Shown piece by piece: positions 3,772 to 27,338 of a stretch of DNA of 27,338 nucleotides. The stretch's first letter is position 1. Each line of letters begins with the position of its first letter. The stretch is taken from IMG/VR virus record IMGVR_UViG_2585427755_000009; one strand, written 5' to 3'. The position numbers and the translations under genes were made by a program. The DNA comes from a virus (taxonomy: Duplodnaviria; Heunggongvirae; Uroviricota; Caudoviricetes). The notes beneath the pieces are model-generated. The model searched no databases and was not told the DNA's origin. It saw only the letters and a program-made list of their open reading frames with translations.

Positions 3772-4005
3772 ATGCGTAATATTGAAACCCTCTCGACTAA
3801 AACCGGACCGGATGACGCAGGACTTAATATTTTACTGACAGAGGCTCGTCTGGAAGAACGTCGGGCAAGCGCTGAAGCAATGGCAGCTCGCCTTGATAGC
3901 CTTGCGTGCCATATCACATCCCGCCAGCTAAACCACGTTGAAGCGGCTGAACTGCTGCGTGTGGCAGCTGAAGCAATCCAGAACGAAGCGCAGGAGATCC
4001 ACTAA
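3772..4005 (+). CDS. Hypothetical early protein
   Basis: ATG 3772 preceded by AGGAG (8-nt spacer); the track start at 3766 is TTG. Its stop overlaps the start of the next gene (TAATG). Confidence 0.6.
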   Translation: MRNIETLSTKTGPDDAGLNILLTEARLEERRASAEAMAARLDSLACHITSRQLNHVEAAELLRVAAEAIQNEAQEIH

Positions 4006-4232
4006 TGGCTGATGCAATGGATCTCGTACAGCAGCGCGTTGAAGAAGAACGCCAGCGTCATATCCGTGCTGCCCGTGCCAAAACGCCGGGCGTGTCCCGC
4101 GTGCTTTGCATTGAGTGTGAAGCGCCAATTCCGCCAGCACGCCGCCGTGCCATTCCGGGTGTGCAGCTTTGCATTACCTGTCAGGAAATCGCAGAGCTGA
4201 AAGGCAAACATTACAACGGAGGTGCTGTATGA
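4005..4232 (+). CDS. TraR/DksA-family C4 zinc-finger protein
   Basis: 75 aa with CxxC-(17)-CxxC (CIECEAPIPPARRRAIPGVQLCITCQ), the usual phage TraR/DksA-like arrangement; translationally coupled on both sides. Confidence 0.7.
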   Translation: MADAMDLVQQRVEEERQRHIRAARAKTPGVSRVLCIECEAPIPPARRRAIPGVQLCITCQEIAELKGKHYNGGAV

Positions 4233-5086
4233 GCACCATCCTGAAATGGGCGGGAAATAAAACCGCCATTATGTCCGAACTGAAAAAGCATCTTCCTGCT
4301 GGCCCGCGACTGGTTGAACCTTTCGCGGGTTCCTGTGCAGTGATGATGGAGACGGAGTACCCCAGCTATCTTGTTGCGGATATTAATCCTGATTTAATCA
4401 ACCTCTATAAAAAGGTTGCTGCTGATTGTGAATCGTTTATATCTCGCGCCAGAGTTTTATTTGAGATCGCAAACAGGGGGGTGGCTTATTACAACATAAG
4501 GCAGGAGTTTAATTACTCAACTGAAATTACTGATTTCATGAAAGCGGTATATTTCCTGTATCTCAATCGTCACGGTTACCGTGGTTTATGTCGCTATAAC
4601 AAGAGCGGGCATTTCAACATTCCCTACGGTAATTATAAAAATCCGTATTTCCCTGAAAAAGAAATTCGCGCATTTGCAGAAAAAGCCCAGCGAGCAACGT
4701 TTATCTGCGCCAGCTTTGATGAAACGCTGGCGATGTTGAAGGCGGGGGATGTGGTGTATTGCGATCCGCCGTATGACGGTACGTTTTCCGGCTATCACAC
4801 TGATGGTTTCACTGAAGATGACCAGTATCACCTGGCATCCGTTCTTGAACATCGGTCATCAGAAGGACATCCGGTCATTGTTTCTAACAGTGATACATCC
4901 CTGATCCGTTCGCTGTATCGCAATTTTACTCACCACTATATCAAGGTAAAACGCAGCATCGGTGTGGCAGCTGGCGAGGGTAAATCAGCAACAGAAATCA
5001 TTGCTGTTTCCGGGCCGCGCTGCTGGGTGGGATTTGATTATTCGCGTGGCGTGGATAGTTCTGCCGTGTACGGAGTACGTGCATGA
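4229..5086 (+). CDS. dam: DNA adenine-N6 methyltransferase (Dam family, GATC-type)
   Basis: Catalytic DPPY motif ([10 protein letters not shown]) and N-terminal AdoMet-binding region (LKWAGNK...EPFAGSCAV). Start ATG 4229 overlaps the previous stop (ATGA). Confidence 0.85.
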
Positions 5087-7497
5087 GCCATGCCGATATG
5101 AACAACTGCTGCGGCTTTAACGAGGCTGCCGCAGCGTTCTCATGGAACAGCCCGAAAAAGGCCATTAACCCTTATCTGGACCCGGCGGAAGTTGCGCCGG
5201 TTTCTGCGCTTTCAAACCTGATCGCTCTGTACGCTGCCGATAACGAACAGGAACACCTGCGCCGCGAGGCACTGAGTGATCAGGTCTGGGAGCGTTATTT
5301 CTTTAATGAATCCCGTGATCCTGTCCAGCGCGAAATGGAGCAGGATAAGCTCATTAGTCGGGCAAAGCTGGCGCATGAGCAGCAGCGTTTTAATCCAGAT
5401 ATGGTCATTCTGGCGGACGTCAATGCCCAGCCTTCCCATATCAGCAAGCCGCTGATGCAACGTATTGAATACTTCAGCAGCCTGGGCAGGCCAAAGGCTT
5501 ATTCCCGCTATTTGCGTGAGACGATTAAGCCATGTTTGGAGCGACTGGAGCATGTACGCGACAGCCAGCTATCTGCATCTTTTCGTTTTATGGCAAGCCA
5601 TGTAGGGCTGGACGGCCTGCTGATTCTGCCTGAAATGAGTCAGGATCAGGTGAAACGCCTGTCTACTCTTGTCGCTGCGCATATGAGCATGTGTCTTGAT
5701 GCCGCTTGTGGTGATTTGTACGCCACCGATGATGTTAAGCCAGAAGAAATCCGCAAGACATGGGAAAAGGTGGCAGCAGAAACCCTGCGACTGGATGTTA
5801 TCCCGCCTGCGTTTGAGCAACTTCGTCGGAAAAGAAACCGCCGTAAACCCGTGCCCTATGAACTCATTCCGGGTTCGCTGGCGCGTATGTTGTGCGCCGA
5901 TTGGTGGTACCGGAAATTATGGAAGATGCGTTGCGAATGGCGGGAAGAGCAGTTGCGTGCTGTTTGCCTGGTCAGCAAAAAAGCATCTCCCTATGTCAGC
6001 TATGAAGCCGTGATGCATAAACGTGAGCAGCGCCGTAAGTCGCTGGAGTTTTTCCGTTCTCATGAACTGGTGAACGAAGACGGCGACACGCTGGACATGG
6101 AGGATGTGGTAAACGCCAGCAGCAGCAACCCGGCGCATCGCCGCAATGAGATGATGGCCTGTGTTAAAGGTCTGGAGCTTATCGTAGAAATGCGCAGTGA
6201 CTGTGCCGTTTTCTACACTATCACCTGTCCGTCGCGTTTCCATTCCACGCTCAATAACGGCAGACCAAACCCGACCTGGACAAACGCGACGGTAAGACAA
6301 AGCAGCGATTATCTGGTCGGCATGTTTGCTGCATTTCGTAAGGCTATGCACAAAGCCGGGTTGCGCTGGTATGGCGTGCGGGTGGCTGAACCGCATCATG
6401 ACGGCACAGTTCACTGGCACCTGTTGTGTTTCATGCGCAAAAAAGACCGCCGCGCCATTACTGCATTGTTGCGTAAGTTTGCCATCCGTGAAGACCGCGA
6501 GGAGCTGGGCAATAACACGGGGCCACGCTTTAAGTCTGAGCTGATAAACCCGCGCAAAGGTACGCCAACAAGCTACATCGCGAAATACATCAGTAAGAAC
6601 ATTGACGGGCGTGGTCTGGCTGGCGAGATCAGCAAGGAAACGGGTAAATCCCTGCGTGATAACGCTGAATACGTTAATGCCTGGGCGTCTCTGCATCGTG
6701 TTCAGCAATTCCGCTTCTTTGGTATTCCGGGGCGTCAGGCTTACCGTGAACTTCGCTTGCTGGCTGGTCAGGCGGCAAGGCAACAGGGTGACAAAAAAGC
6801 AGGTGCGCCGGTACTGGATAACCCGCGTCTTGATGCCATTCTGGCTGCTGCTGATGCTGGTTGTTTTGCCACCTACATCGTGAAGCAGGGCGGCGTACTG
6901 GTTCCCCGTAAATATCACCTCATCAGAACCGCTTATGAAATCAACGAAGAGCCGACCGCCTATGGCGATCACGGCATTCGTATTTATGGCATCTGGTCAC
7001 CCATTGCAGAGGGCAAGATCTGCACTCATGCAGTGAAGTGGAAAATGGTTCGTAAAGCCGTTGACGTTCAGGAGGCGGCAGCCGACCAGGGCGCTTGCGC
7101 CCCTTGGACTCGTGGCAATAACTGTCCCCTTGCTGAAAATTTGAACCAACAGGAGAAAGATAAATCAGCTGATGGGGACACCAGAACGGATATTACCCGC
7201 ATGGATGACAAGGAGTTGCACGATTACCTGCACAGTATGAACAAAAAAGAGCGCCGGGAACTGGCTGCAAGGTTACGTCTGGTGAAACCGAAACGGCGTA
7301 GAGACTACAAACAGCGAATTACAGACCATCAACGACAGCAGCTCGTCTATGAACTGAAGTCCAGAGGATTTGATGGCAGCGAGAAAGAGGTCGATTTACT
7401 CCTTCGCGGCGGCAGTATTCCATCAGGAGCAGGCTTGCGTATCTTCTATCGGAACCAGCGTCTGAAGGAAGATGATAAGTGGCGGAACCTGTATTAA
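5083..7497 (+). CDS. repA: Replication initiation endonuclease (P2 gpA / 186 RepA rolling-circle family)
   Basis: 804-aa protein after dam (ATGA overlap); contains the HUH-type motif [11 protein letters not shown] and the downstream YIAKYISK tyrosine region typical of P2 A protein. Confidence 0.9.
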
Positions 7498-7649: not shown

Positions 7650-7838
7650 ATGCAGGACTATTTTTTGGAGTCTTTGAAGCTCCAGCGCATTGATTTTTTT
7701 CTTAAGCTTGTAGCGGCTAGTGAGTGTAGTGATGAAGAGAAGGGGCTGGCTCTGCAGTGGGTTTCTGAATTAACTGATGAACTCATGGCAAAAATCAGAA
7801 CCCACGAATACAACCGCTCAATGGATGTCATCAGTTGA
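7650..7838 (+). CDS. Small SOS-induced protein, candidate Tum-like antirepressor
   Basis: 62-aa ORF with strong RBS (AGGAGG) immediately downstream of the LexA box. Position matches 186 tum; the sequence itself was not recognised. Confidence 0.5.
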   Translation: MQDYFLESLKLQRIDFFLKLVAASECSDEEKGLALQWVSELTDELMAKIRTHEYNRSMDVIS

Positions 7839-7849
7839 GGTGACTTTTT

Positions 7850-8083
7850 ATGCGCATTGAAATAATGATCGATAAAGAGCAGAAGATTAGCCAGTCTACC
7901 CTGGACGCCCTTGAATACGAGCTTTACCGCAATCTGCGCCCCCTGTATCCAAAAACGGTAATTCGCATCCGCAAAGGTAGCTCTAACGGTGTGGAACTGA
8001 CCGGACTGCAACTGGACGAAGAAAGGAAGCAAGTGATGAAAATTATGCAGAAAGTGTGGGAAGACGACAGCTGGCTGCATTAA
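7850..8083 (+). CDS. DinI-family protein
   Basis: MRIEIMIDKE...DALEYELYRNL...KIMQKVWEDDSWLH aligns by eye with E. coli DinI (MRIEVTIAKT...DALAGELSRRI...EILQETWESADDWF). RBS GAGGTGA; second gene of the LexA-box operon. Confidence 0.8.
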   Translation: MRIEIMIDKEQKISQSTLDALEYELYRNLRPLYPKTVIRIRKGSSNGVELTGLQLDEERKQVMKIMQKVWEDDSWLH

Positions 8084-8268
8084 GAAACGTTGCCCCTAGG
8101 AGGATTCATTCTAATGGGGGCTAGTTTGGGCAACGAGTGAAATAAGGCGTAAGGTGGGCGGTCATTTTTATAAGTGATCGTCCGCTTTGTGCCAGAAGCG
8201 AACGTTTCTTCTGCTATCTTTCGTCAATTAGCGAATGGCAGACTAATTTGCAACGGATAATCTGAATT

Positions 8269-8295
8269 TTGTTAGATTATGGGTATTCCTATAAT
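8269..8295 (+). promoter_or_regulatory. Putative sigma70 promoter for the KAP NTPase cargo gene
   Basis: TTGTTA (8269-8274), 15-bp spacer, consensus TATAAT (8290-8295), in the AT-rich leader upstream of the KAP gene. Confidence 0.3.
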
Positions 8296-8404
8296 ATTTA
8301 CCAATAATAACCTTACAATGTACACTACCGATTGAGTTTTCCATAGTTGGCCTTTGGCTCTACTTACCATCTATGTTTATGTATTTTATCAAAATGGACT
8401 AAAA

Positions 8405-10297
8405 ATGCACAATACGTACATCAAAGACTATCTAGAATATTACCTTAGCCTTAAAACTGAACCTCAATACGCCATTATGCTTAAAGGTGCTTGGGGATCA
8501 GGTAAAACTTGGTTCATTGAACGAGTTCTTGAAGAATATAGGCAGAAACATTCAGAGTTCAAATTTCTAAAAGTGAGCTTGTATGGCGTCAACTCTATTG
8601 AGCAGATTGAAGATGAGTTCTATCGTCAACTGCATCCTGTCCTATCAAACAAAGCCCTTATCTTTGGTGCAAATGTACTAAAAAATACGCTTAAGGCTAC
8701 TTTCAAGATCGATCTTAATGGCGATAATAAATCTGACGTAGATGTCAATAGCAATGTTCCCACCATTAATCTTAGCGACTTTACTAGAAAACCAGATGGT
8801 TTTGTGCTGGTCTTTGATGATGTCGAGAGAGCTGGTGTAGATTTACCAATCTTATTTGGATATATAAATCACTTTGTGGAGGTAAACGGATACAAAGCGA
8901 TCTTGGTTGCCAATGAAGATGAAATAATCAATAGAGAAAAGCGAATAAATAATGATGATGAGAAATCTCGCAATGAATACATGAGAACAAAAGAAAAGCT
9001 AGTAGGTAAAACATTTGAAGTAACGTCAGATTTACATAGTGCTTGTAAGATTTTTTTGAACGTAATTAGTAGTTTGCATGTTGCTAATATATTTAAAGAA
9101 GATATGCAGACAATAGAGGACCTCTATGTGTCAGCGAATTATAATAATCTAAGACACTTGAGGCAGTTCTTTCTCGATGTACAACGAATTATTTCCCTTT
9201 TGGGAGATAAATATGTAAGTAACGATGAATTTATAAGGGTGTTTTTTCATCAATTGTTAATTTTTTCGATGGAGTACCGGGGAGGGAATCTTAGTTACGA
9301 GGATTTCAATTCAATCGGCAATGTTAATTATGGTATGTTTTTGGGTAAAGAACGTGTCAAAAGTAAGTATGACATGATTGTCGAGAAATATTCGTCTCCT
9401 GTATTAACCGAGAAGTTACTGGATGGTGCGTCTTGGAGAGAACTAATCTGTGATGGAAAGGTAACGGGTGATCTTCTTGCTCAGTTGGATATTACGCGAT
9501 TTTTTAGAAGCAGCGATTCCCAAGCATGGGAGTATTTGTGGAACTATAGAGAACTAAATGAAACTATGCTTTATGAGCAGTACGCTATTGCTAAGGATAA
9601 CCTGTTTTCAGGTAAGATCACTTCCTTAGGTGAACTTCTGATGACAGCGAGTATTTTGCTGGAAATGGCGAAAGAAGGTCTAACAACAGATGATGTTCAT
9701 GATCTCATAAATGAGACAAAACAGAATATAAATAATTATTATAATAGACTTAGAGCTGAAGATGTACATAAGGAATATGCGCAAACACATTATAACGAAT
9801 TAAGGGCATGGCGTGGTTTAGGTTTTCTTGACAGGGATAGTGATGACTTTAAGCTCATTATTGAACATATTAAAATAGAAAGGAAGAAACGGTTTGATGA
9901 TTCAATTTCGGAATTTGCATTGCAGTTCAGAGATGAGTTACAAAGGGGAAAATTATCGTTGTTATCTGAATTGAGTCATTCTAATAATAGACAGTTAAAT
10001 CTTCATGATGTACCTTTTTTACACTTAGTTCCTGCTGATGTTTTCATTGAAAGCTATAGGAAACTTGATCCAGTTATCATGAGGAAACTGGCATTTAGCT
10101 TACGGAGTCGTTATTCTGATGCGGATGCCAGAACTAGACTGATTGAAGAATATAACTGGTTGATCAACCTAAAAGATATAGCTGTAGATTTCATTAAAAA
10201 CTCAGAAAATAGCGTTTTTCAGGTCTTTCACGTAAAATTTTTCATTGACTATGTACTAACTGACGCAATCAAATTCTTTAGTGATGGGACAAATTAA
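8405..10297 (+). CDS. KAP-family P-loop NTPase
   Basis: Walker A GAWGSGKT close to the N-terminus and a Walker B-like hhhhDDVER (VLVFDDVER), the arrangement of KAP NTPases. About 630 aa, AT-rich relative to core phage genes. ATG 8405; the track start at 8354 is TTG. Confidence 0.8.
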   Translation: MHNTYIKDYLEYYLSLKTEPQYAIMLKGAWGSGKTWFIERVLEEYRQKHSEFKFLKVSLYGVNSIEQIEDEFYRQLHPVLSNKALIFGANVLKNTLKATFKIDLNGDNKSDVDVNSNVPTINLSDFTRKPDGFVLVFDDVERAGVDLPILFGYINHFVEVNGYKAILVANEDEIINREKRINNDDEKSRNEYMRTKEKLVGKTFEVTSDLHSACKIFLNVISSLHVANIFKEDMQTIEDLYVSANYNNLRHLRQFFLDVQRIISLLGDKYVSNDEFIRVFFHQLLIFSMEYRGGNLSYEDFNSIGNVNYGMFLGKERVKSKYDMIVEKYSSPVLTEKLLDGASWRELICDGKVTGDLLAQLDITRFFRSSDSQAWEYLWNYRELNETMLYEQYAIAKDNLFSGKITSLGELLMTASILLEMAKEGLTTDDVHDLINETKQNINNYYNRLRAEDVHKEYAQTHYNELRAWRGLGFLDRDSDDFKLIIEHIKIERKKRFDDSISEFALQFRDELQRGKLSLLSELSHSNNRQLNLHDVPFLHLVPADVFIESYRKLDPVIMRKLAFSLRSRYSDADARTRLIEEYNWLINLKDIAVDFIKNSENSVFQVFHVKFFIDYVLTDAIKFFSDGTN

Positions 10298-10583
10298 TAT
10301 TTTGTTGATTAACATAGGGATATATTATGAGAAGTACTAGGGATGGTCAGCAACATTATTAATGTCCGCTTCGCTCAAAGCAGGCTTTGTGCTTTGTAAG
10401 TACGTATGTTTCGTTTATCAAGCGATCATTCGGTTACTGGATTTCAGTTCCCCCGTAAGTGCATGACTATGCCGCATGAGATCGCATGATCGTTTGCGGA
10501 TCGTTTTTGCTAAGGCCCGCCAGAACTGGTGGGATTTTGCGTAGATCATGCACCTGCATGAAAACCGCTACATAAAGCGGGCA

Positions 10584-10602
10584 GGCGTGGCGGGGATACG
10601 AT
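10584..10602. other. Putative cos (cohesive-end) core of a P2/186-type phage
   Basis: GGCGTGGCGGGGATACGAT matches about 14/19 (P2) and 16/19 (186) of the cos sequences as I recall them. It lies in a 360-bp GC-richer non-coding island between two AT-rich cargo genes, where P2-family cos is expected (between the A side and Q). The comparison is from memory. Confidence 0.3.
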
Positions 10603-10659
10603 TGCGCGCGCAAGCTAAAGTGGCAATAATGAGCATGTAAGGTAAAATTCAAGGAGATT

Positions 10660-11814
10660 ATGATGTATATCTGCGAAAGTCACATTGTTGAATCAAATAT
10701 AAAAAAACTAATTTTTTCGCAAAATATACGAGGTATTTGTGCTTTTTGTTGTGCAGATACTGTTTGTTTAGATACTGATTCTTCAGAAGTACGTAATTTG
10801 TTGAAAGCTATTCTGAGATATCATTATGATGAAGTCGATTACAATACTCATTTTGGAGGGGAGTATTACCCGAGTTTTCTATTGGAAGATGATTTTATTT
10901 TCACCAAGGATATACAGGAGCATGATGAATCTTTTGGGGAACTCGATAGCGAATTGTGGGATATGGCATTTGATAGTGAGGGAATAAATATTTATGCAGG
11001 CTATGGATCTGATGGTCTATATAATACGCCATATATGTCTATCAGAAATGCACATCAGCCATTTTTAGATTCTCTGTCAAAACAGCTTTCAGAAAAGAAT
11101 TACCATGATTTTGAAGGTGAGCTAAGAAGTATTATAAAAGGTTATGGTGATATTTTTTCGAAGATAATAGAAGGAAGTTCTGTGGTATATAGAGCCAGAG
11201 TTGGGACTGCTGGCTATAAAACAGCACTTAGGGGATTTAGCCGTGAAGGAAAGAAAATATTTGTTCCATTTAAAGATAAGGAAATAGGAGCCGTGCCACC
11301 ACTAAAGGCTACTGCTGGCAGGGCTAATAGAGCAGGCGTTTCTTACCTTTATTGTGCTACAGATAGTTATACTGCAATTGCGGAAGTTCGACCTCATCCA
11401 ACAGATGTTGTTTCAATTGGTAAATTTAGAGTTGCAAAAGCATTAAAGGTATTCGATTTTTCTTATCCTAATTTTTTAGAGTTTATTGAGAGTGATGAAA
11501 GTTTATTATCCATGATACCATATGCAAAGATGGCAGGTATTTTTAATACTGCAACTCCACCTTCCTTAGAAGGAAGATATAGTGTGTCCCAACTAATATC
11601 TGATTGTATAAGGAAAGAGGGGTATGATGGTATACAATTTTCAAGTACAGTTGGTAAAGGTAAGAACTTGGTTGTTTTTAATCCTTCATGTATGGAATTT
11701 ATAGATGGTTCATCAAAAGTAATAGAAATTGACAAGGTTCAGTATATTTACGAGGAAAAGCAGGTTGTTGGTATGAATGATCAATGGGAGATTTATTACG
11801 ATGAAGTTGAATAA
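10660..11814 (+). CDS. RES-domain protein with a Cys-rich N-terminal extension (putative NAD+-targeting toxin/Abi effector)
   Basis: C-terminal half carries the three RES landmarks: GRANRAG (Arg), YLYCATDSYTAIAEVRPH (Glu) and DGIQFSSTVGKGKNLVVF (Ser). N-terminal 200 aa has CxxH...CxFCCxxxxC. AGGAG RBS; AT-rich. Confidence 0.8.
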   Translation: MMYICESHIVESNIKKLIFSQNIRGICAFCCADTVCLDTDSSEVRNLLKAILRYHYDEVDYNTHFGGEYYPSFLLEDDFIFTKDIQEHDESFGELDSELWDMAFDSEGINIYAGYGSDGLYNTPYMSIRNAHQPFLDSLSKQLSEKNYHDFEGELRSIIKGYGDIFSKIIEGSSVVYRARVGTAGYKTALRGFSREGKKIFVPFKDKEIGAVPPLKATAGRANRAGVSYLYCATDSYTAIAEVRPHPTDVVSIGKFRVAKALKVFDFSYPNFLEFIESDESLLSMIPYAKMAGIFNTATPPSLEGRYSVSQLISDCIRKEGYDGIQFSSTVGKGKNLVVFNPSCMEFIDGSSKVIEIDKVQYIYEEKQVVGMNDQWEIYYDEVE

Positions 11815-11821
11815 GTGATAA

Positions 11822-11857
11822 TAGCCCCATTGAGAATTTTCATTTCTCTTGGGGCTA
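11822..11857. terminator. Stem-loop, likely bidirectional terminator between the convergent RES-domain gene and portal gene
   Basis: TAGCCCCA / TGGGGCTA outer stem with inner GAGAA / TTCTC stem and 7-nt loop, in the 52-bp gap between convergent stop codons. Confidence 0.45.
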
Positions 11858-11866
11858 ACTTAAATA

Positions 11867-12898
11867 TTAATCAAAGCAATATGAATTGAATGTAATTAAA
11901 TCTTCACCTAGCCAATCATTGACCTCCTCCATCCTTTTTTGTAAAGGTAGCAACTCGTTTCGAACAAACACATTAGCAGCCTTCTCCACATCCCCAAATC
12001 CCCCGACATTATTTGGCATTATCCCCATCATCTGTGGCGGCACGCGGTGTGCTGCCATCATGTCATCGCGACTAACATTTTTGATATTCAGAAATTCATC
12101 CTTCGCCGCGACTTCTGACAACGGGATAATCTGAAGTCCGTCCTTTTTGCCGTTCGGCGAGTACATAAACAGGTTGCGGAAGTTGCCCGGACCTTTGGCG
12201 CTTTTCATCGCATTACGGAGGTTGTTCACATCTTCCTGGTTCTGCGCGGCATCGGTCATGTACATGATGAAGCCTGCATGACTACCGTTAATGTAATACT
12301 TCCGGCGGAACAGCGTGGCGGACTCGTTGAGCAGGGCTGACGGAATGGCAGAAAGATAACCGGGCAGGCCGTAGATCTCCTGGTTGATATCCGGTTCCAT
12401 CAGGTGAAAAATGCTGCCTTTCGTGAACTGATACGGCTGTGTAGTCATGCCGTATTGCACAAACCAGTAGGTATCCAGGTCTAACCCGCGTCGGGTGTAT
12501 TTTGCCAGAGCAGGCTCAAGGGCGATAACTTCACCGAAGCGGTTCGTGCGTTTCTCCAGGTAGGCGTTACCAAATACCAGATAGTCCTGCACAAAACGTG
12601 AAAAAGCCTGCTGGCTGAGCAGCGGGTGAGGGATGTAGGTACTGGTCAGAATGTTGCATTTCACCGCAATTGGTGAGCTGTGATGCACGGCGGCGCGGAA
12701 GGTTCGTGCCAGTCCGTCAAAGCTGACGGGCGGCTCATACCAGCGATCCATCTGTACGCATTCCACATAGTCCAGCAGTTCACGGCGGTCCAGAACAGGA
12801 ACGGGATCGCCAAAGCTGAATGCTTCGGCTGAAGTTTGGCTTTTATGCTTGAGCTGATTCGTCGCCGCAGCGCGGTTTTTCTTACTCTTTCCCATCAA
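11867..12898 (-). CDS. Q: Portal protein (P2 gpQ family)
   Basis: 343 aa, transcribed leftward together with the terminase; size and position are those of P2 Q. Confidence 0.9.
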   Translation of the reverse strand: MMGKSKKNRAAATNQLKHKSQTSAEAFSFGDPVPVLDRRELLDYVECVQMDRWYEPPVSFDGLARTFRAAVHHSSPIAVKCNILTSTYIPHPLLSQQAFSRFVQDYLVFGNAYLEKRTNRFGEVIALEPALAKYTRRGLDLDTYWFVQYGMTTQPYQFTKGSIFHLMEPDINQEIYGLPGYLSAIPSALLNESATLFRRKYYINGSHAGFIMYMTDAAQNQEDVNNLRNAMKSAKGPGNFRNLFMYSPNGKKDGLQIIPLSEVAAKDEFLNIKNVSRDDMMAAHRVPPQMMGIMPNNVGGFGDVEKAANVFVRNELLPLQKRMEEVNDWLGEDLITFNSYCFD

Positions 12899-19402: not shown

Positions 19403-19796
19403 AGCGGTGCCTTATGTCCGCAATAACCCGGACAAACTGCATCTGTTTGTGGATAACGGTTCGCTGGTTGCTACGGGGGCCAGCTCCATGTCATGGGAGT
19501 ACCGTTACACCCTGAACGTGGTGATTGAGGATTTCAGCGGCGACCAGAATCTGCTGATGGCTCCGGTTTTGCTGTGGCTGCGGGATAACCAGCCCGATGC
19601 CATCAATAACCCGGCGTTACGGGAAAAGCTATTCACCTTTGAGGTGGATATTCTGCGCAACGATGTCTGTGATATCAGCCTTAACCTGCAACTGACGGAG
19701 CGTGTGCTGGTCAGCACTGACGGCAGTGTGTCGAGTGTTGAAGCTGTAGCGGAACCCGATGAACCTGAAGAAATGTGGACGGTGAAACGTGGCTGA
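19365..19796 (+). CDS. R: Tail completion protein (P2 gpR family)
   Basis: GTG 19365 preceded by AGGAG (7-nt spacer); about 143 aa; the track start at 19344 is TTG. Confidence 0.8.
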   Translation: MNKPQSLRHALNKAVPYVRNNPDKLHLFVDNGSLVATGASSMSWEYRYTLNVVIEDFSGDQNLLMAPVLLWLRDNQPDAINNPALREKLFTFEVDILRNDVCDISLNLQLTERVLVSTDGSVSSVEAVAEPDEPEEMWTVKRG

Positions 19797-20238
19797 ATTG
19801 CAGAAGGTGGACGACTGGCTGAGTGCCTTGCTGGCGAATCTGGAGCCAGCCGCAAGAAGCCGCATGATGCGCCAACTGGCGCAGGAACTTCGCCGGACAC
19901 AGCAGCAGAATATCAGGATGCAGCGCAACCCTGACGGCAGCAGCTATGAACCGCGACGGGTAACAGCACGCAGTAAAAAAGGCCGTATCAAACGTCAGAT
20001 GTTTGCAAAGCTGCGCACCACAAAATACCTGAAAACTGCCGCCAGCACCGACTCTGCCAGCGTGCAGTTTGAAGGCAAGGTGCAGCGCATTGCCCGCGTT
20101 CATCACTACGGCCTGCGCGATCGTGTCAGTCGTAAGGGACCGGAGGTCCGTTACGCAGAGCGTCGCCTGCTGGGTGTAAATGATGATGTTGAAGCAAATA
20201 TCCGTGATATTTTGCTACGTTGGCTAAGCCAATATTAA
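19789..20238 (+). CDS. S: Tail completion / virion morphogenesis protein (P2 gpS family)
   Basis: 149 aa, GTG start overlapping the R stop; P2 R-S synteny. Confidence 0.8.
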   Translation: MAELQKVDDWLSALLANLEPAARSRMMRQLAQELRRTQQQNIRMQRNPDGSSYEPRRVTARSKKGRIKRQMFAKLRTTKYLKTAASTDSASVQFEGKVQRIARVHHYGLRDRVSRKGPEVRYAERRLLGVNDDVEANIRDILLRWLSQY

Positions 20239-20239
20239 T

Positions 20240-20935
20240 TCATGTCAAATATTGATAACTTTTATCAATTTCAAGTTTGTGAAATTTGGTTATCTTTGAA
20301 TCAATGTATAAATCTATGAACATTGCTATCCCTATCATAAATATAAATAGAATGCTTAAATAAATAATGGGGGTGGCAATCATAATTGTAAATTTGTTCT
20401 TGTCTGTAGTTTTTGCTAACTCTTCTTTCTTTTCAGGAATTAGCAAGTAGCTACAAATGAAATCTTTTGTGGCTTGTTGGATTGAAGTGATCTTATCAAG
20501 CTGTGACTTGTCAACACATACATCTGGTGTGATATTCCATTCAGATGTGTATGGTATGTTTTGTGCGTGTTCTGGTTTCATCCAAAAGGAATCTTTTGTT
20601 TCTCTATGTGTGATTTCAACCCAATTTACGGGTTCTTTGGCGATGAAATAGGTAAATTTATAAAAACAAAGTGCTGAGGTCATAATGACTGCAATTCCAA
20701 ATGAGACGATAAATATTTTATGTTTTTTAATATGGGGTTTTGTGCTTAACTTATATTTGCAAAGACTAAGTCTAATAATTGGCTTTGATATTCCAATCTT
20801 TGATATCAAAAAGTCTTCTTCTGGATAGGATGTGTTTAACCATGACCAAAAAGCTGAGATGCCACCTATAAGCCATTTAAATATAAGACCACCAATGGCC
20901 GTAGCTAAAAATGTATTTATTTTATCGATTTCCAT
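20240..20935 (-). CDS. Integral membrane protein of unknown function (AT-rich moron between S and V, opposite strand)
   Basis: 231 aa with 3-4 predicted TM helices. Strongly AT-rich, antisense to the late operon; its stop codon is one base from the gpS stop. Confidence 0.6.
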   Translation of the reverse strand: MEIDKINTFLATAIGGLIFKWLIGGISAFWSWLNTSYPEEDFLISKIGISKPIIRLSLCKYKLSTKPHIKKHKIFIVSFGIAVIMTSALCFYKFTYFIAKEPVNWVEITHRETKDSFWMKPEHAQNIPYTSEWNITPDVCVDKSQLDKITSIQQATKDFICSYLLIPEKKEELAKTTDKNKFTIMIATPIIYLSILFIFMIGIAMFIDLYIDSKITKFHKLEIDKSYQYLT

Positions 20936-20971
20936 ATAGATCCCCTTTTGGTTGAGCTATCTGGGATTATA

Positions 20972-20989
20972 TGTATGAGAGACAGAACA
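20972..20989. promoter_or_regulatory. Candidate late-promoter activator site (TGT-N12-ACA) upstream of baseplate gene V
   Basis: TGTATGAGAGACAGAACA, 47-64 bp upstream of the V start codon, where the P2 V late promoter would be expected. Confidence 0.35.
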
Positions 20990-21035
20990 ATGAAGCGAGG
21001 TTCGTTAAAATAGGAATCACGGGCATTCTTTCTTC

Positions 21036-21614
21036 ATGAATGCACAATTAACCGAAATTATGCGCCTTATCACCAACCTGATCCGCACTGGTGTAGTCAC
21101 CGAAGTGGACCGGGAAAACTGGCTTTGCCGGGTGAAAACGGGCGACCTTGAAACCAACTGGATTAACTGGCTGACGCTGCGCGCGGGTAATGCCCGCACA
21201 TGGTGGAAACCATCGGAAGGTGAGCAGGTGGTGCTGCTGAGTCTGGGCGGCAATCTGGAAACCGCCTTTGCGTTACCCGCCATCTATTCGAATCAGTTCG
21301 CGCCACCGTCGACGTCGGCGGACGCCTGCGTGACAGAACATCCTGACGGTGGCTGGTTTGAATACGAACCCGCCACTGGGCGCTGGTATGTCAGGGGCAT
21401 CAAATCAATGGTCATTGAGGCCGCTGACAACATCACCATGAAAACCAGTGAGTTTGTACTGGAGACTGACCGCACGCGCATTAACAGTGAAGTGGTGATC
21501 AATGGTGGCGTTACCCAGGGCGGCGGAGCGATGAGTTCTAACGGGATCGTGGTTGATGCGCATCAGCATACTGGCGTCCTGAAAGGCGGCGATACAACCG
21601 GAGGCCCGGTATGA
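21036..21614 (+). CDS. V: Baseplate assembly / spike protein (P2 gpV family)
   Basis: 192 aa with a Gly-rich C-terminus; first gene of the V-W-J-I-H-G block. Confidence 0.85.
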   Translation: MNAQLTEIMRLITNLIRTGVVTEVDRENWLCRVKTGDLETNWINWLTLRAGNARTWWKPSEGEQVVLLSLGGNLETAFALPAIYSNQFAPPSTSADACVTEHPDGGWFEYEPATGRWYVRGIKSMVIEAADNITMKTSEFVLETDRTRINSEVVINGGVTQGGGAMSSNGIVVDAHQHTGVLKGGDTTGGPV

Positions 21615-22865: not shown

Positions 22866-23463
22866 TCTGCTGCCACCGGGTTCAACACCACTGGAGCGCC
22901 GACTGGCGCAAACCTGCAGCGGGATTTCTGATCTGCAGGTGCCGCTTCGTGACTTGTGGAATCCGGCAACCTGTCCGGTCAGTTTCCTGCCTTATCTCGC
23001 CTGGGCGTTCTCTGTGGATCGCTGGGACGAGGGCTGGACAGAAAGCGTCAAGCGCCAGGTGGTGAAGGATGCTTTTTATATTCATCAGCATAAAGGGACC
23101 ACCAGTGCCGTGCGGCGGGTGGTGGAGCCGTTCGGCTTTCTGATCCGCATTATTGAGTGGTGGCAGACCGGAGAGGCACCGGGCACGTTTCGCCTGGATA
23201 TCGGCGTGCAGGACCATGGCATCACTGAAGATACCTATCTGGAACTTGAGCGACTGATAAGCGATGCCAAACCATGTAGCCGCCACATGATCGGCATGTC
23301 CATCAATCTGCAGACCAGCGGCCCGCATTGGGTGAGAGCCGCCAGCTATCTTGGCGAAGAAATCACGATCTATCCGTATATCAACGAAACAATTATTTCT
23401 GGCGGCACCGCGCATGAAGGCGGAGCGGTCCATGTTATTGACACAATGAGAGTGAATCCATGA
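22858..23463 (+). CDS. I: Baseplate/tail protein I (P2 gpI family)
   Basis: 201 aa between J and the tail-fibre gene. Confidence 0.85.
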
Positions 23464-24860
23464 GCACAAAATTTTATACCCTGCTGACGGATATTGGCGC
23501 GGCGAAACTTGCCAGCGCCGCCGCGCTCGGTGTGCCTTTAAAAATTACCCATATGGCGGTCGGCGATGGCGGCGGAACATTGCCAACGCCGGACGCAAAG
23601 CAGACAGCACTGGTAAATGAGAAACGCCGGGCTGCGCTGAATATGCTCTATATCGACCCGCAGAACAGCAGCCAGATTATTGCTGAACAGGTGATCCCTG
23701 AAAATGAGGGCGGTTGGTGGATACGTGAAGTGGGCCTGTTTGATGAATCCGGGGCATTGATTGCCGTGGGCAACTGCCCGGAAAGCTATAAGCCGCAACT
23801 GGCTGAAGGCAGCGGGCGCACCCAGACCGTGCGCATGGTGCTGATTACCAGCAGTACGGACAATATCACCCTGAAAATCGACCCTGCTGTAGTACTGGCA
23901 ACCCGCAAGTATGTGGATGATAAGACACTGGAGCTGAAGGTGTATGTGGATGACCAAATGGCAAAACACCTTGCCGCAGCGGACCCACATTCACAGTATG
24001 CACCCAAAGAAAGTCCAACGTTTACCGGAACCCCCAAAGCGCCAACGCCAGCGGCGGGGAATAATACCACGCAGGTTGCGACCACTGCATTTGTTCAGGC
24101 GGCACTGACGGCTCTTATTAATGGTGCGCCAGCCACGCTGGACACGCTGAAAGAAATAGCCGTAGCCATTAACAATGATCCGAAATTCAGTACCACCATT
24201 AACAATGCGTTGGCACTGAAAGCGCCGCTGTCGAGTCCGGCACTTACCGGAACGCCAACAGCTCCCACGGCGGCGCAGTCGGTCAACAATACACAGATTG
24301 CCACTACCGCTTTTGTGAAATCGGCAATTGCAGCAATGGTGGGTTCTGCACCTGCGGCACTGGATACGCTGAACGAACTGGCAGCGGCGCTGGGGAATGA
24401 TCCGAACTTTGCCACGACAATGCTTAATGCGCTGTCAGGTAAACAACCGCTGGACAATACGCTTACCAATTTGAGTGGAAAGGATGTAGCTGGTCTTCTC
24501 ACATACCTTGGTTTGGGAGAAGCGGCTAAAAGGAATGTAGGGACAGGGGCGAATCAGATACCTGATATGGGTAGCTTCACGCTTTCTGTTTCAGGTACTG
24601 GATATCAAAAATTACCATCAGGTTTTATTCTTCAGTGGGGCTCAATCGGCGCACCAGGCATTGCACAGGATGTAGTAACCCATTTCCCGATTGCATTTCC
24701 AAACAGATGTCTGCGTGTTTTGGTCTCACAAGACTACACACCAGATAGCGGGGCTGTTGGTTATATTGCCTGTGCAGGTTTTAGTCCCGACCCGGTTAAA
24801 TTTATATCCAGAGCCAGTACTCCTGGCCTCGGCGCTTCATTTTTAGCGTTAGGCTGTTAA
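23460..24860 (+). CDS. H: Tail fibre protein (P2 gpH-like), current C-terminal variant
   Basis: 466 aa; conserved N-terminal region followed by a distinct C-terminal domain after the hix-like site at 24496-24521. Confidence 0.85.
23514..24522. repeat. Left arm of a perfect inverted repeat of at least 1,009 bp (tail-fibre constant region)
   Basis: Reverse complement of 26330-27338; proteins in all reading frames across the two arms are identical in the ORF track. The repeat reaches the window edge, so the outer limit is unknown. Confidence 0.85.
24496..24521. promoter_or_regulatory. Hin/Gin/Cin-type inversion crossover site (hix/gix-like), left copy
   Basis: TTCTCACATACCTTGGTTTGGGAGAA; its reverse complement TTCTCCCAAACCAAGGTATGTGAGAA matches hixL as I recall it (TTCTTGAAAACCAAGGTTTTTGATAA) at the core AAACCAAGGT and the TTCT/GAA ends. 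It sits exactly where tail-fibre identity ends. Confidence 0.5.
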
Positions 24861-24881
24861 TTTAGCTATATGGAGTGAAAA

Positions 24882-25322
24882 ATGAATTACATATATTCCG
24901 CGACTACAAACTCTTTCTATCCGCTGGAGATGAAAGAGGATTACACTCAAGCTGACTCATGGCCAGATGATGCTGTTGAAGTTGATGAGCAAGTGTATAT
25001 TGAGTTTTCCGGATTACCGCCGAAAGGAAAAATCCGTATCGCTGGAGAAAATGGTTTTCCTGCATGGTCTGAAATTCCACCACCAACACATGAGGAACAA
25101 ATTGCTGCAGCCGAATTGGAGAAGCAGCAATTGATTAATCAGGCCAACGATTATATGAACAGTAAACAATGGCCTGGTAAAGCGGCTATTGGTCGTCTGA
25201 AAGGTGAGGAACTGGCGCAATATAATTTGTGGCTGGATTATCTGGACGCACTGGAACTGGTTGATACCTCCAGTGCTCCAGATATTGAATGGCCTACGCC
25301 TCCGGCAGTTCAGGCCAGATGA
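24882..25322 (+). CDS. G: Tail fibre assembly chaperone (P2 gpG / Mu U family)
   Basis: 146 aa immediately after H; conserved C-terminal DxxxxWP motif region (APDIEWPTPP). Confidence 0.8.
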   Translation: MNYIYSATTNSFYPLEMKEDYTQADSWPDDAVEVDEQVYIEFSGLPPKGKIRIAGENGFPAWSEIPPPTHEEQIAAAELEKQQLINQANDYMNSKQWPGKAAIGRLKGEELAQYNLWLDYLDALELVDTSSAPDIEWPTPPAVQAR

Positions 25323-25887
25323 CATCCGGCGCGGTGCTGGTATCTGTTGCCGTCACCGCGTCAATGTAATCCAGCACAGCGTTAAGTCTGGTTGTTTCTG
25401 CCTGCGTCAGTTTACGTTCGGCCTGTAATTTCAGCTGAATCAGACTAATGGAAGCCATTGCTGCATCAATCAGTGACTGGCGCTGTGCTTCTGCCGCTTC
25501 TACTGCGGCACCGTGTTGTGCCTCAGTATCTGTCACCCATTTCTTACCATCCCATTTATCATATGGCGTTAACGGTGAAAGCGTGACATAACCGTTTTTG
25601 ATGGCACCGATATAATCCACTGTAACAGCAGCACCATTTTCGATTGAGTAAACAGTCTCATTGCGATGGTCTTCTTCATGGCTCCATCCCTTACCTGTAA
25701 ATACTGCCACTCTTCCCGGAATGTTTTCGCCAGGGTCAATTCCAGTGGAACAGGCGGGCATACTTACGCCAGTATTAATATATTCATCAGACCAGCCCGT
25801 ATACTCAGATGTTTCAGCATCATAATAAAAACAACGCATATCGCCCGGCACTGTAGCCAGCCCATTTTTATCAAAAACAGGTTTCAT
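25294..25887 (-). CDS. Alternative tail fibre assembly chaperone (G'), convergent with G
   Basis: 197 aa on the minus strand after H'; C-terminus APDVIWPELP parallels the G C-terminus; the 3' ends of G and G' overlap by 29 bp. Confidence 0.75.
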   Translation of the reverse strand: MKPVFDKNGLATVPGDMRCFYYDAETSEYTGWSDEYINTGVSMPACSTGIDPGENIPGRVAVFTGKGWSHEEDHRNETVYSIENGAAVTVDYIGAIKNGYVTLSPLTPYDKWDGKKWVTDTEAQHGAAVEAAEAQRQSLIDAAMASISLIQLKLQAERKLTQAETTRLNAVLDYIDAVTATDTSTAPDVIWPELPEA

Positions 25888-27338
25888 TATTTAGCCCTCA
25901 CCAGAAAGTTAAATGCGATGTTACGTGGTCTGACGGCTATAAAATTCACACCATCACCCACTGAATTACTGGTGTAATGGTATCGAGAGAAACCCGGCTC
26001 GTGTGCTGATATTCCATCGTGATTAGCAATCGAATGGCCGGACCCCTCTGGATAATTACCTCCAAATTGCGATAAAGATGTTGCTGCCTGCCAGCTTAAT
26101 AATGCTCGTCCACTGTCCGCCCCTCGCCCGTCATCCCAGATACGAATGAAATCACCGCGGGCTTCAGGTAATACCAGCGAAGGAAACACTTTCGCCAGCA
26201 CAGGGTAATCAGTGGCAGAGAATTTCGCGCCGTTGAACTTCAAAAACACCATGCCGGACCAGCTTTCGATTACGGTATCTGGCATTGCAGCGGACGGCCA
26301 GAAGAACGGAACACCAATAGCTGGAGCACCTTCTCCCAAACCAAGGTATGTGAGAAGACCAGCTACATCCTTTCCACTCAAATTGGTAAGCGTATTGTCC
26401 AGCGGTTGTTTACCTGACAGCGCATTAAGCATTGTCGTGGCAAAGTTCGGATCATTCCCCAGCGCCGCTGCCAGTTCGTTCAGCGTATCCAGTGCCGCAG
26501 GTGCAGAACCCACCATTGCTGCAATTGCCGATTTCACAAAAGCGGTAGTGGCAATCTGTGTATTGTTGACCGACTGCGCCGCCGTGGGAGCTGTTGGCGT
26601 TCCGGTAAGTGCCGGACTCGACAGCGGCGCTTTCAGTGCCAACGCATTGTTAATGGTGGTACTGAATTTCGGATCATTGTTAATGGCTACGGCTATTTCT
26701 TTCAGCGTGTCCAGCGTGGCTGGCGCACCATTAATAAGAGCCGTCAGTGCCGCCTGAACAAATGCAGTGGTCGCAACCTGCGTGGTATTATTCCCCGCCG
26801 CTGGCGTTGGCGCTTTGGGGGTTCCGGTAAACGTTGGACTTTCTTTGGGTGCATACTGTGAATGTGGGTCCGCTGCGGCAAGGTGTTTTGCCATTTGGTC
26901 ATCCACATACACCTTCAGCTCCAGTGTCTTATCATCCACATACTTGCGGGTTGCCAGTACTACAGCAGGGTCGATTTTCAGGGTGATATTGTCCGTACTG
27001 CTGGTAATCAGCACCATGCGCACGGTCTGGGTGCGCCCGCTGCCTTCAGCCAGTTGCGGCTTATAGCTTTCCGGGCAGTTGCCCACGGCAATCAATGCCC
27101 CGGATTCATCAAACAGGCCCACTTCACGTATCCACCAACCGCCCTCATTTTCAGGGATCACCTGTTCAGCAATAATCTGGCTGCTGTTCTGCGGGTCGAT
27201 ATAGAGCATATTCAGCGCAGCCCGGCGTTTCTCATTTACCAGTGCTGTCTGCTTTGCGTCCGGCGTTGGCAATGTTCCGCCGCCATCGCCGACCGCCATA
27301 TGGGTAATTTTTAAAGGCACACCGAGCGCGGCGGCGCT
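25887..27338 (-). CDS. Alternative tail fibre protein H' (partial; 5' end runs off the window)
   Basis: N-terminal about 320 aa identical to H, different C-terminal receptor-binding region (GAPAIGVPFFWPSAAMPD...). The reading frame stays open to the window edge. Confidence 0.75.
   Translation of the reverse strand, partial: SAAALGVPLKITHMAVGDGGGTLPTPDAKQTALVNEKRRAALNMLYIDPQNSSQIIAEQVIPENEGGWWIREVGLFDESGALIAVGNCPESYKPQLAEGSGRTQTVRMVLITSSTDNITLKIDPAVVLATRKYVDDKTLELKVYVDDQMAKHLAAADPHSQYAPKESPTFTGTPKAPTPAAGNNTTQVATTAFVQAALTALINGAPATLDTLKEIAVAINNDPKFSTTINNALALKAPLSSPALTGTPTAPTAAQSVNNTQIATTAFVKSAIAAMVGSAPAALDTLNELAAALGNDPNFATTMLNALSGKQPLDNTLTNLSGKDVAGLLTYLGLGEGAPAIGVPFFWPSAAMPDTVIESWSGMVFLKFNGAKFSATDYPVLAKVFPSLVLPEARGDFIRIWDDGRGADSGRALLSWQAATSLSQFGGNYPEGSGHSIANHDGISAHEPGFSRYHYTSNSVGDGVNFIAVRPRNIAFNFLVRAK
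26330..27338. repeat. Right arm of the perfect inverted repeat of at least 1,009 bp (truncated by the window end)
   Basis: Reverse complement of 23514-24522. Confidence 0.85.
26331..26356. promoter_or_regulatory. Hin/Gin/Cin-type inversion crossover site (hix/gix-like), right copy
   Basis: TTCTCCCAAACCAAGGTATGTGAGAA, inverted copy of the site at 24496-24521, at the inner edge of the right repeat arm. Confidence 0.5.

Follow-up and report, generated by a model that had tools for sequence, protein, structure and literature searches.

P2-like phages take up foreign genes at three usual sites, the TO region, the Z region and orf30 (PMC3091744). The hotspots named in surveys of this group are A-Q (old/tin), Z/fun and tail-cI, and the interval between genes S and V is not named among them (Rousset et al., 2022, PMC9122126; bioRxiv 10.1101/2024.10.15.618418). 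Variable loci of P2-like prophages are productive sources of new anti-phage systems, and among the three classical variable regions orf30 has received the least attention. In phage P2, the S-V interval encodes Orf30 (NP_046770.1; phrog_2407), a 261-aa protein on the minus strand that is annotated as nonessential. The GC content of orf30 is 0.34, compared with 0.54-0.60 in P2 S and V. The function of Orf30 is given as 'unknown' (PMC3091744), and phage R18C carries a different ORF at the orf30 locus (PMC6823313). A further group of described systems comprises T4 Imm, P22 SieA and HK97 gp15, which are small phage- or prophage-encoded exclusion proteins of the inner membrane (described in part in PMC10883804 and PMC11436027).

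The DNA analyzed here, a stretch of 27,338 nt that is referred to as the window, is a P2-like prophage with genes for integrase, CI repressor, replication, capsid, lysis, tail completion, baseplate and tail fibres. Between S and V, an ORF of 231 codons lies on the opposite strand (Table 1), and its stop codon converges with that of gpS with a single base, 20239, between them. The first-pass annotation, made from the sequence of the window, had described an AT-rich minus-strand ORF ending one base from the gpS stop. The coordinates agree (20240 and 20238), as does the composition, the ORF having a GC content of 0.315 and a GC3 of 0.30 and the late genes a GC content of 0.56, while the GC3 of S is 0.58 and that of V 0.63. 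Along the window, the GC content falls from 0.55-0.60 to 0.32-0.33 over positions 20200-21000. The annotation did not recognize the slot as orf30, a variable locus that has long been known in P2-like phages (PMC3091744), or the protein as a member of the named family DUF6216. The window gene itself is an ordinary accessory gene of this locus, of a known kind.

Table 1. Features of the S-V interval and its anchor genes, in window coordinates.
Feature	Position	Strand	Basis or remark
gpS, tail completion/virion morphogenesis, left anchor gene	19789..20238	+	Pfam Phage_tail_S, E 4e-43
Exchanged cassette, GC ~0.33	20211..21021		Homology break versus empty-site phages 500465-1 and 4LV2017
CDS, 231-aa DUF6216 protein	20240..20935	-	Stop codon 20240-20242, ATG 20933-20935
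Shine-Dalgarno-like GGGGA	20941..20945	-	Sequence; 5 nt before ATG; AGG core kept in 63%-identity allele
Perfect TATAAT -10-like hexamer, candidate sigma-70	20966..20971	-	30 nt upstream of ATG; inferred
TGT-N12-ACA dyad, putative Ogr/Delta-type activator site of V late promoter	20972..20989		Position and P2 alignment
gpV, baseplate spike, right anchor and first gene of V late operon	21036..21614	+	Phage_base_V and Apex

The closest phages show what the locus looks like when this gene is absent. In Escherichia phage 500465-1, Klebsiella phage 4LV2017 and others, S and V are 95-96% identical to those of the window and the gap between them is only about 70-80 nt, which bears out the earlier proposal that the gene was acquired horizontally. 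Homology to 500465-1 and 4LV2017 ends at 20210/20225, within the last codons of S, and restarts at 21022, just before the V ATG, with about 79 nt of the empty-site type being replaced by the cassette. The last gpS codons belong to the cassette, and the C-terminus of the protein reads ...LLRWLSQY versus ...ILQWLAG in the empty-site type. The short gap of the 500465-1-type phages holds a TGT-N12-ACA dyad of its own. From these alignments, the exchanged unit appears to consist of a new S C-terminus, the ORF and the V promoter region, as would be expected if recombination took place in the genes on either side. For the window gpS, the 80 nearest IMG/VR relatives comprise 77 with an empty gap and three with the insert of the window. 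Among 5426 complete E. coli genomes, this gpS type is present in 1009 and the insert in 5. The empty gap in the nearest relatives, together with this rarity, indicates an acquired cassette. The insert gave no DNA or protein match when compared with 50,697 phage records by BLASTN and TBLASTN.

Thus, the ORF is an extra gene between genes that are otherwise adjacent, and its nucleotide composition is deviant, both of which are hallmarks of a moron in the sense of Hendrix and Juhala. The first-pass annotation had also considered that homologues might turn out to be conserved virion proteins. This does not hold, as sequenced phages whose S and V are 95% identical lack the gene, and Orf30 is annotated as nonessential in P2. 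These comparisons support the assignment of the gene as an accessory moron for a membrane protein and not as a virion component. Overall, the locus is very probably a horizontally exchanged S-V ('orf30') cassette of a P2-like prophage, encoding an inner-membrane protein with three TMs that belongs to DUF6216.

Hydropathy analysis (Kyte-Doolittle) of the 231-aa protein identifies transmembrane segments at approximately residues 8-32, 74-98 and 184-210. These segments match the helices of the AlphaFold2 model (pLDDT 87.7, pTM 0.70). Of the three to four helices proposed initially, three are retained and the fourth is not. In the model, the TM1 helix is followed by short helices, the TM2 helix, four beta strands and a short helix with the first cysteine, after which come the helix with the second cysteine and the long helix that holds TM3. 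In the predicted topology, the N-terminal tail is outside, the loop of residues 33-73 and the C-terminal tail, which ends in KSYQYLT, are cytoplasmic, and the domain of residues 99-183 is periplasmic. The periplasmic placement of this two-cysteine domain follows from the positive-inside charge count. C140 and C161 probably form a disulfide within it. The mean identity within the clade of 231-aa proteins is 0.87 for TM1, 0.71 for the tail, 0.70 for the cytoplasmic loop and 0.55 for the periplasmic domain, and it is lowest for TM2, at 0.45. The conservation of TM1 and the loop would fit a conserved host partner as well as phage recognition. At the divergences available for a dN/dS analysis of the periplasmic domain, synonymous sites are saturated.

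Comparisons with functional databases returned no characterized relative. No family of PADLOC-DB 2.0 matched the 231-aa protein at E<=10, nor did PHROGs or a sequence profile search of the PDB at the same threshold, and no NCBIfam family matched. Three fold searches recovered no known fold and no tie to a known Sie, Abi or defence protein, and no homology to a characterized superinfection-exclusion protein was found. In contrast, Pfam assigns the protein to DUF6216 (PF19723) with 44.7 bits against a gathering threshold of 27.3 (E 1.3e-11), and the alignment places residues 40-203 on profile positions 94-251 of 270. The same name, 'DUF6216 family protein' (WP_001554842.1), is used by RefSeq for the identical locus in five E. 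coli chromosomes. DUF6216 is an already named but uncharacterized family, and the sources checked for the homologue clusters give no functional name for any relative. A 2026 preprint entitled 'H-NS silences antiviral immunity through 3D chromatin compaction' (bioRxiv 10.64898/2026.09.05.749240) contains the phrase '... and DUF6216 genes' once.

A search of 5.8 billion proteins yielded 25 homologue clusters, all from Enterobacterales, with identities of 44-98% to the window protein. PF19723 is present in all 25, the length is exactly 231 aa in nearly every cluster, and 48 alignment columns are invariant. This constancy of length and sequence indicates that the ORF is a conserved coding gene and did not arise by chance. 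Beyond these close homologues the family is small: when 1.84 billion representatives were scanned exhaustively with HMMER, no more than 30 relatives emerged, with identities as low as about 20%. The sole invariant residues in the alignment of the wide family are A124, W133, C140 and C161, all of which are located between TM2 and TM3. The P2-associated clade of 231-aa proteins forms a compact sub-branch of DUF6216, and distant members also occur outside P2-like prophages, for example in another mobile island (L023).

The position of the gene is conserved along with its sequence. In P2-like prophages, relatives with as little as about 20% identity share the length of the window protein and its antisense location between S and V. 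Members with 63% (P0006), 39% (P0027) and approximately 25% (P0043) identity to the window protein are also encoded antisense between S and V in P2-like prophages, and two further loci of the species-level survey (L110 and L122) have the same arrangement. Intact copies also occur in degraded remnants of Kosakonia, Raoultella and Enterobacter, along with fragments of V, D or ogr and IS elements. In the Enterobacter cloacae complex, the gene adjoins ybjL, the chromosomal border gene of the intact prophage in FORC_081, and at this site nothing else is left of the prophage except the region upstream of the gene and 44 nt of V. The index of the assembly collection lists the identical protein in 79 blocks.

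P2 Orf30 shares more than the slot with the window protein. Both genes are antisense and AT-rich (GC 0.34 in P2 and 0.32 here), and both proteins possess three TMs, a basic first loop, a domain of four strands and helices with two conserved cysteines, and a basic tail. The first loop contains nine K/R residues in the window protein and 14 in Orf30, and in both proteins the two-cysteine domain is charge-neutral and about 85 aa long. The AlphaFold2 model of Orf30 (pLDDT 72) has the same order of secondary-structure elements as that of the window protein. In contrast, Orf30 is 30 aa longer, with a bigger first loop, and lacks the C-terminal YxYLT motif. P2 also possesses a terminator between S and orf30, while none is seen at the S/moron junction of the window.

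The sequence relationship between the two proteins is remote. BLASTP of the window protein against Orf30 gave no direct match (E>1), Orf30 has no hit in Pfam, and the window protein does not join phrog_2407 by direct HMM or pairwise comparison. With hhalign, the DUF6216 profile scored 8% (E 0.0042) against the single Orf30 sequence and 27% (E 7e-4) against a profile of five Orf30 sequences. The A10 Orf30 profile adds two S-V proteins, from Yersinia frederiksenii and Rahnella, to these five sequences, and its alignment with the DUF6216 profile (A6) reached a probability of 94.1% (E 1.2e-7) over 169 columns with the cysteine pair in register. The strong link is seen only once the Yersinia and Rahnella cargo has joined the Orf30 profile, and the composition of membrane proteins can inflate profile-profile scores. 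The Yersinia S-V protein (L153) matches both sides, with E values of 1.6e-22 for the Orf30 profile and 9.6e-6 for DUF6216. Its DUF6216 score of 17.0 bits exceeds those of all 500 local shuffles that preserved hydropathy, for which the maximum was 12.9. Additionally, phrog_2407 is weakly matched by 3 of 27 members of the wide DUF6216 family (best E 1.2e-4), and PF19723 likewise by 2 of 7 members of the Orf30 family (E 0.0034). At the superfamily level, profile-profile comparison, architecture and slot all connect the two families. Based on this evidence, DUF6216 and P2 Orf30 (phrog_2407) are likely to be remote homologues. Both this link and the finding of defence systems in the S-V slot are new here.

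The contents of the slot in other prophages were obtained from a species-level scan with a gpS profile, which recovered 80 loci, in 73 of which V was found. The S-V gap is empty in 41 of the 73 and filled in 32. The cargo of the filled loci is 250-3200 nt long, AT-rich and mostly antisense, and its GC content is 0.31-0.47 for nearly all of them, compared with 0.54-0.64 in the flanks. It includes PARIS (AriA, E 1.6e-44, with AriB), a C5 cytosine methylase with a NotI-like endonuclease, the KAP NTPase PDC-S20 (E 8e-89) and PDC-S31. Fic, FRG, HigB toxin, DUF4062 and HEPN_Apea proteins are also encoded there. These contents suggest, as guilt by location, that the slot is used for functions expressed by the lysogen, largely in phage conflict. 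Like the P2 defence genes old, tin and Z/fun (PMC9122126), the cargo is AT-rich and nonessential and lies between conserved anchor genes. As in the P2/P4 hotspots, cargo turns over by recombination in the flanks, and the S-V slot also holds PARIS, restriction-modification systems and KAP NTPases. It differs from old/tin and Z/fun in being another locus, and the window cargo is a membrane protein without an enzymatic domain. Hotspot slots of the S-V type carry non-defence cargo as well.

The region between the moron and V contains signals for both strands. Upstream of the ORF, the candidate -10 hexamer TATAAT is preceded at a distance of 17 nt by TTCATT, which matches the -35 consensus at three of six positions. 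The V late-promoter-like element that the first-pass annotation placed beyond the ORF start is found as the dyad at 20972-20989. Its centre lies 55.5 nt before the V ATG, the same spacing that the P2 record shows from the annotated activator site to the start of V transcription. The V promoter regions of the window and P2 align. The six-base motif of the dyad alone is not significant, so the weight falls on its position and the alignment. The dyad overlaps the spacer and -35 region of the candidate moron promoter. TATAAT is kept in the window and in the alleles L002-L005 and L019, and it is absent from L110, L122 and L020. The allele with 63% identity has an identical copy of the block CTTCATTGTT...ATACATATAATCCCA, which is also present in the 39%-identity allele and absent in L110, L122 and L020. 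Its conservation cannot be credited to a moron promoter alone because these bases also make up the Ogr dyad of P_V. A consensus scan for promoters and terminators gave no excess over shuffles, and TATAAT fell below its threshold. When the S/moron junction was folded as RNA, the z-scores were no stronger than -1.8 and -1.3, marginally better than for shuffles, and no convincing bidirectional terminator follows the stop codon. A third hallmark of a moron would be its own promoter and terminator for expression from the repressed prophage; for this, the window offers the candidate TATAAT with a weak -35 and the Shine-Dalgarno-like GGGGA. Activation of the moron by Ogr through the symmetric dyad was also considered and rejected. 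Only about 45 nt separate the dyad centre from the moron ATG, and with the -55 geometry of Ogr activation the start site would fall inside the ORF.

With regard to function, the slot, which houses known defence systems, and the survival of the gene in remnants give indirect support to a host-beneficial or defence role. The proposal of superinfection exclusion or abortive infection in the first-pass annotation is reasonable but unproven. The best-supported mechanism appears to be superinfection exclusion by an envelope protein expressed from the prophage, which is put forward tentatively and with somewhat less than an even chance of being correct. This reading draws on the orientation of the gene antisense to the late operons, its AT-richness, the defence-rich slot, its occurrence as a single gene and its retention after decay of the phage. 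In the lysogen, the moron would be transcribed from its own sigma-70-type promoter, with the -10 element TATAAT at 20971-20966. The protein would be inserted N-out/C-in, so that the cytoplasm would contain the basic loop 33-73 as well as the conserved tail. The beta/alpha domain of about 85 aa (residues 99-183), probably with a C140-C161 disulfide, would face the periplasm and could hinder genome delivery by incoming phages. It might do so by engaging the tail-tip or ejection proteins of the incoming phage or, alternatively, by masking an inner-membrane or periplasmic host factor that the phage needs. The outcome would be exclusion without cell death, as with T4 Imm, P22 SieA and HK97 gp15. 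After induction, Ogr bound to the dyad overlapping the moron promoter may shut the gene off. Late read-through from S into the antisense strand may also silence it, since no terminator is seen between the convergent stops. For this mechanism we infer the expression of the gene, the topology of the protein, the disulfide and the excluded step, whereas the gene itself, its composition, family, architecture, slot, rarity and persistence in remnants are observed.

The resemblance to T4 Imm, P22 SieA and HK97 gp15 is one of type, in that all are small inner-membrane proteins and the step proposed here is also DNA entry at the envelope. HK97 gp15 is in addition a moron among tail genes, as is the window gene. 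However, no sequence or fold relationship of these three to the 231-aa protein was detected, and the absence of a match to any known Sie, Abi or defence protein in the databases named above weighs against exclusion. So does the history of orf30, which has been known since the 1990s with no exclusion phenotype assigned to it (PMC3091744). The confinement of the -10 hexamer to the closer alleles, and a consensus promoter scan with nothing above chance, likewise speak against the mechanism.

The same observations bear on several other explanations. The gene could encode a lysogenic-conversion factor that acts outside phage defence, on envelope physiology such as stress, bile, colicin or serum tolerance, or signalling. 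Lambda Bor and Lom follow a comparable logic. The presence of the intact gene in remnants beside ordinary chromosomal genes would be explained, the strong conservation of TM1 and the cytoplasmic loop points to a host partner that is itself conserved, and the lack of a defence-family match in PADLOC agrees with it. This explanation is nevertheless unlikely, given that recognizable defence and toxin cargo dominates the slot in other prophages and that the protein resembles no known virulence or envelope factor. An abortive-infection effector would sense infection and then depolarize or permeabilize the inner membrane, leading to cell death before phage release, for which RexB and AbiZ provide the model. 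The absence of a PADLOC match counts against such an effector, as does the lack of a sensor partner for this single gene in the slot. Moreover, the module that defines the family is the extracytoplasmic two-cysteine domain, with TM2 being the least conserved segment, and remnants that have no obvious antitoxin keep the gene constitutively. A small prophage protein with several TMs would suit this role, as would a hotspot that elsewhere carries the Abi-type PARIS, and in the AlphaFold2 model the long TM3 helix with its conserved flanks could oligomerize. On balance, an Abi effector is quite improbable.

The neighborhood of the gene can also be read as a sign of a lytic-cycle accessory, expressed mainly after induction and acting in lysis timing, envelope passage or the sparing of progeny from lysing cells. 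T5 Llp is an analogue for the last of these roles. The gene sits among lysis, tail and baseplate genes and adjoins an Ogr-dependent promoter with a symmetric dyad. Its orientation antisense to both late operons, and a dyad so close to the ATG that Ogr-dependent transcription would start inside the ORF, make this very unlikely, and so do its absence from 77 of the 80 nearest relatives, the nonessential nature of Orf30 in P2 and the fact that the gene outlasts the rest of the phage in remnants. Finally, the rarity of the allele (5/5426 genomes) and the lack of a known function might suggest a spurious ORF or a functionless selfish insert, and the probability of this is negligible. AT-rich DNA gives rise to long chance ORFs less readily than GC-rich DNA. 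The length of 231 aa is constant over 44-98% identity, the wide family has Cys, Trp and Ala residues that never vary, the score for Pfam exceeds the threshold, and the AlphaFold2 model is confident (pLDDT 87.7). As far as sequence evidence goes, this pattern of conservation already refutes such an ORF or insert.

A broader form of superinfection exclusion would unite DUF6216 and Orf30 in one ancient exclusion superfamily that has co-diverged with the P2-like phages, and would make S-V a third P2 defence hotspot. In this form, the periplasmic two-cysteine domain would block envelope penetration or DNA delivery by contractile-tailed phages, perhaps heteroimmune P2-like ones. Although this is rather doubtful, it would, if true, answer the 30-year-old question of the role of P2 orf30 and identify S-V as an unexploited defence hotspot. 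The DUF6216-Orf30 link already provides a single testable hypothesis for both families. Moreover, the presence of PARIS, restriction-modification systems, KAP NTPases and toxins in the S-V slot of other species offers a strategy for mining cargo with gpS and gpV as anchor genes. About one E. coli genome in five contains a P2-like prophage. The window gpS type alone is present in 1009 of the 5426 complete genomes, and orf30-type genes occur in 464 of the 5426.

The interval between the tail-completion gene gpS and the baseplate-spike gene gpV is a cross-species cargo hotspot of P2-like prophages. In the species-level survey of these prophages with a gpS profile (loci L104-L183), the interval was occupied in 32 of 73 loci, at approximately positions 3950-7000 within each locus. 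The recognizable cargo is listed in the table, while several further cargo proteins of the interval had no database matches. The S-V interval is not among the defence hotspots named in the accessible portions of the hotspot literature on P2-like phages (PMC9122126; bioRxiv 10.1101/2024.10.15.618418).

A second type of small membrane protein, of 123 aa with about two transmembrane segments, recurs as S-V cargo in prophages of Serratia silvae and Yersinia alsatica (L138, L180). It carries the sequence pattern 'MEE.EFF..G.V..TNARF...' and had no match in PADLOC, the HMM database of anti-phage defence.

AT-rich cargo such as the antisense DUF6216 membrane-protein ORF of the window prophage is a typical target of H-NS, so expression of this ORF in the lysogen may be limited by H-NS. 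The phrase '... and DUF6216 genes' occurs once in a preprint on the silencing of antiviral immunity by H-NS (bioRxiv 10.64898/2026.09.05.749240).

In the Enterobacter cloacae complex, a P2-like prophage adjoining ybjL is reduced to the DUF6216 gene and a 44-nt gpV stub (L006-L011, 7060-8696), with the flanking genes given in the table.

Positions 8100-11900 of the window correspond to the prophage's classical A-Q (old/tin) hotspot. This region is likewise AT-rich, with a GC content of 0.33-0.39, and encodes a KAP-family NTPase and a RES-domain protein. Near this hotspot, a 140-aa ORF (7658-8080, minus strand) had no matches in the family searches. In the related E. coli FORC_081 prophage, which also carries the DUF6216 insert, the A-Q hotspot instead holds a DEAD/DEAH helicase and a hypothetical gene.

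Features of the S-V intervals, the Enterobacter remnant and the window prophage
Feature	Location	Position	Strand	Remark
PARIS	L171, S-V			
Type II RM pair	L183, S-V			
KAP PDC-S20	L155, S-V			
PDC-S31	L125, S-V			
Fic	L182, S-V			
HigB	L123 and L175, S-V			
FRG	L118 and L129, S-V			
DUF4062	L180, S-V			
HEPN_Apea	L124, S-V			
GIY_YIG_2 protein	L006-L011	directly upstream of remnant		200 aa
arsRBC genes	L006-L011	downstream of remnant		
KAP-family NTPase	window	8354-10297	+	647 aa; matches PADLOC candidate system PDC-S49, E 3e-156
RES-domain protein	window	10660-11814	+	384 aa
H-like tail-fibre gene	window	23460-24860	+	N-terminal Phage_tail_fib domain
Second tail-fibre gene	window	25887-27320	-	N-terminal Phage_tail_fib domain

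The end of the window (23460-27338) contains two tail-fibre genes in inverted orientation, with two tail-fibre-assembly genes between them. Segments of P2 H align to both strands (24234-24449 and 26618-26403; 23708-23855 and 27144-26997). The region looks like an inverted duplication of an entire fibre gene, which goes beyond an invertible C-terminal cassette. At 25879-27273 in the FORC_081 prophage (L001), the tail-fibre invertase (recombinase) gene is broken by IS26; the terminase region contains a partial terminase ORF that is duplicated.
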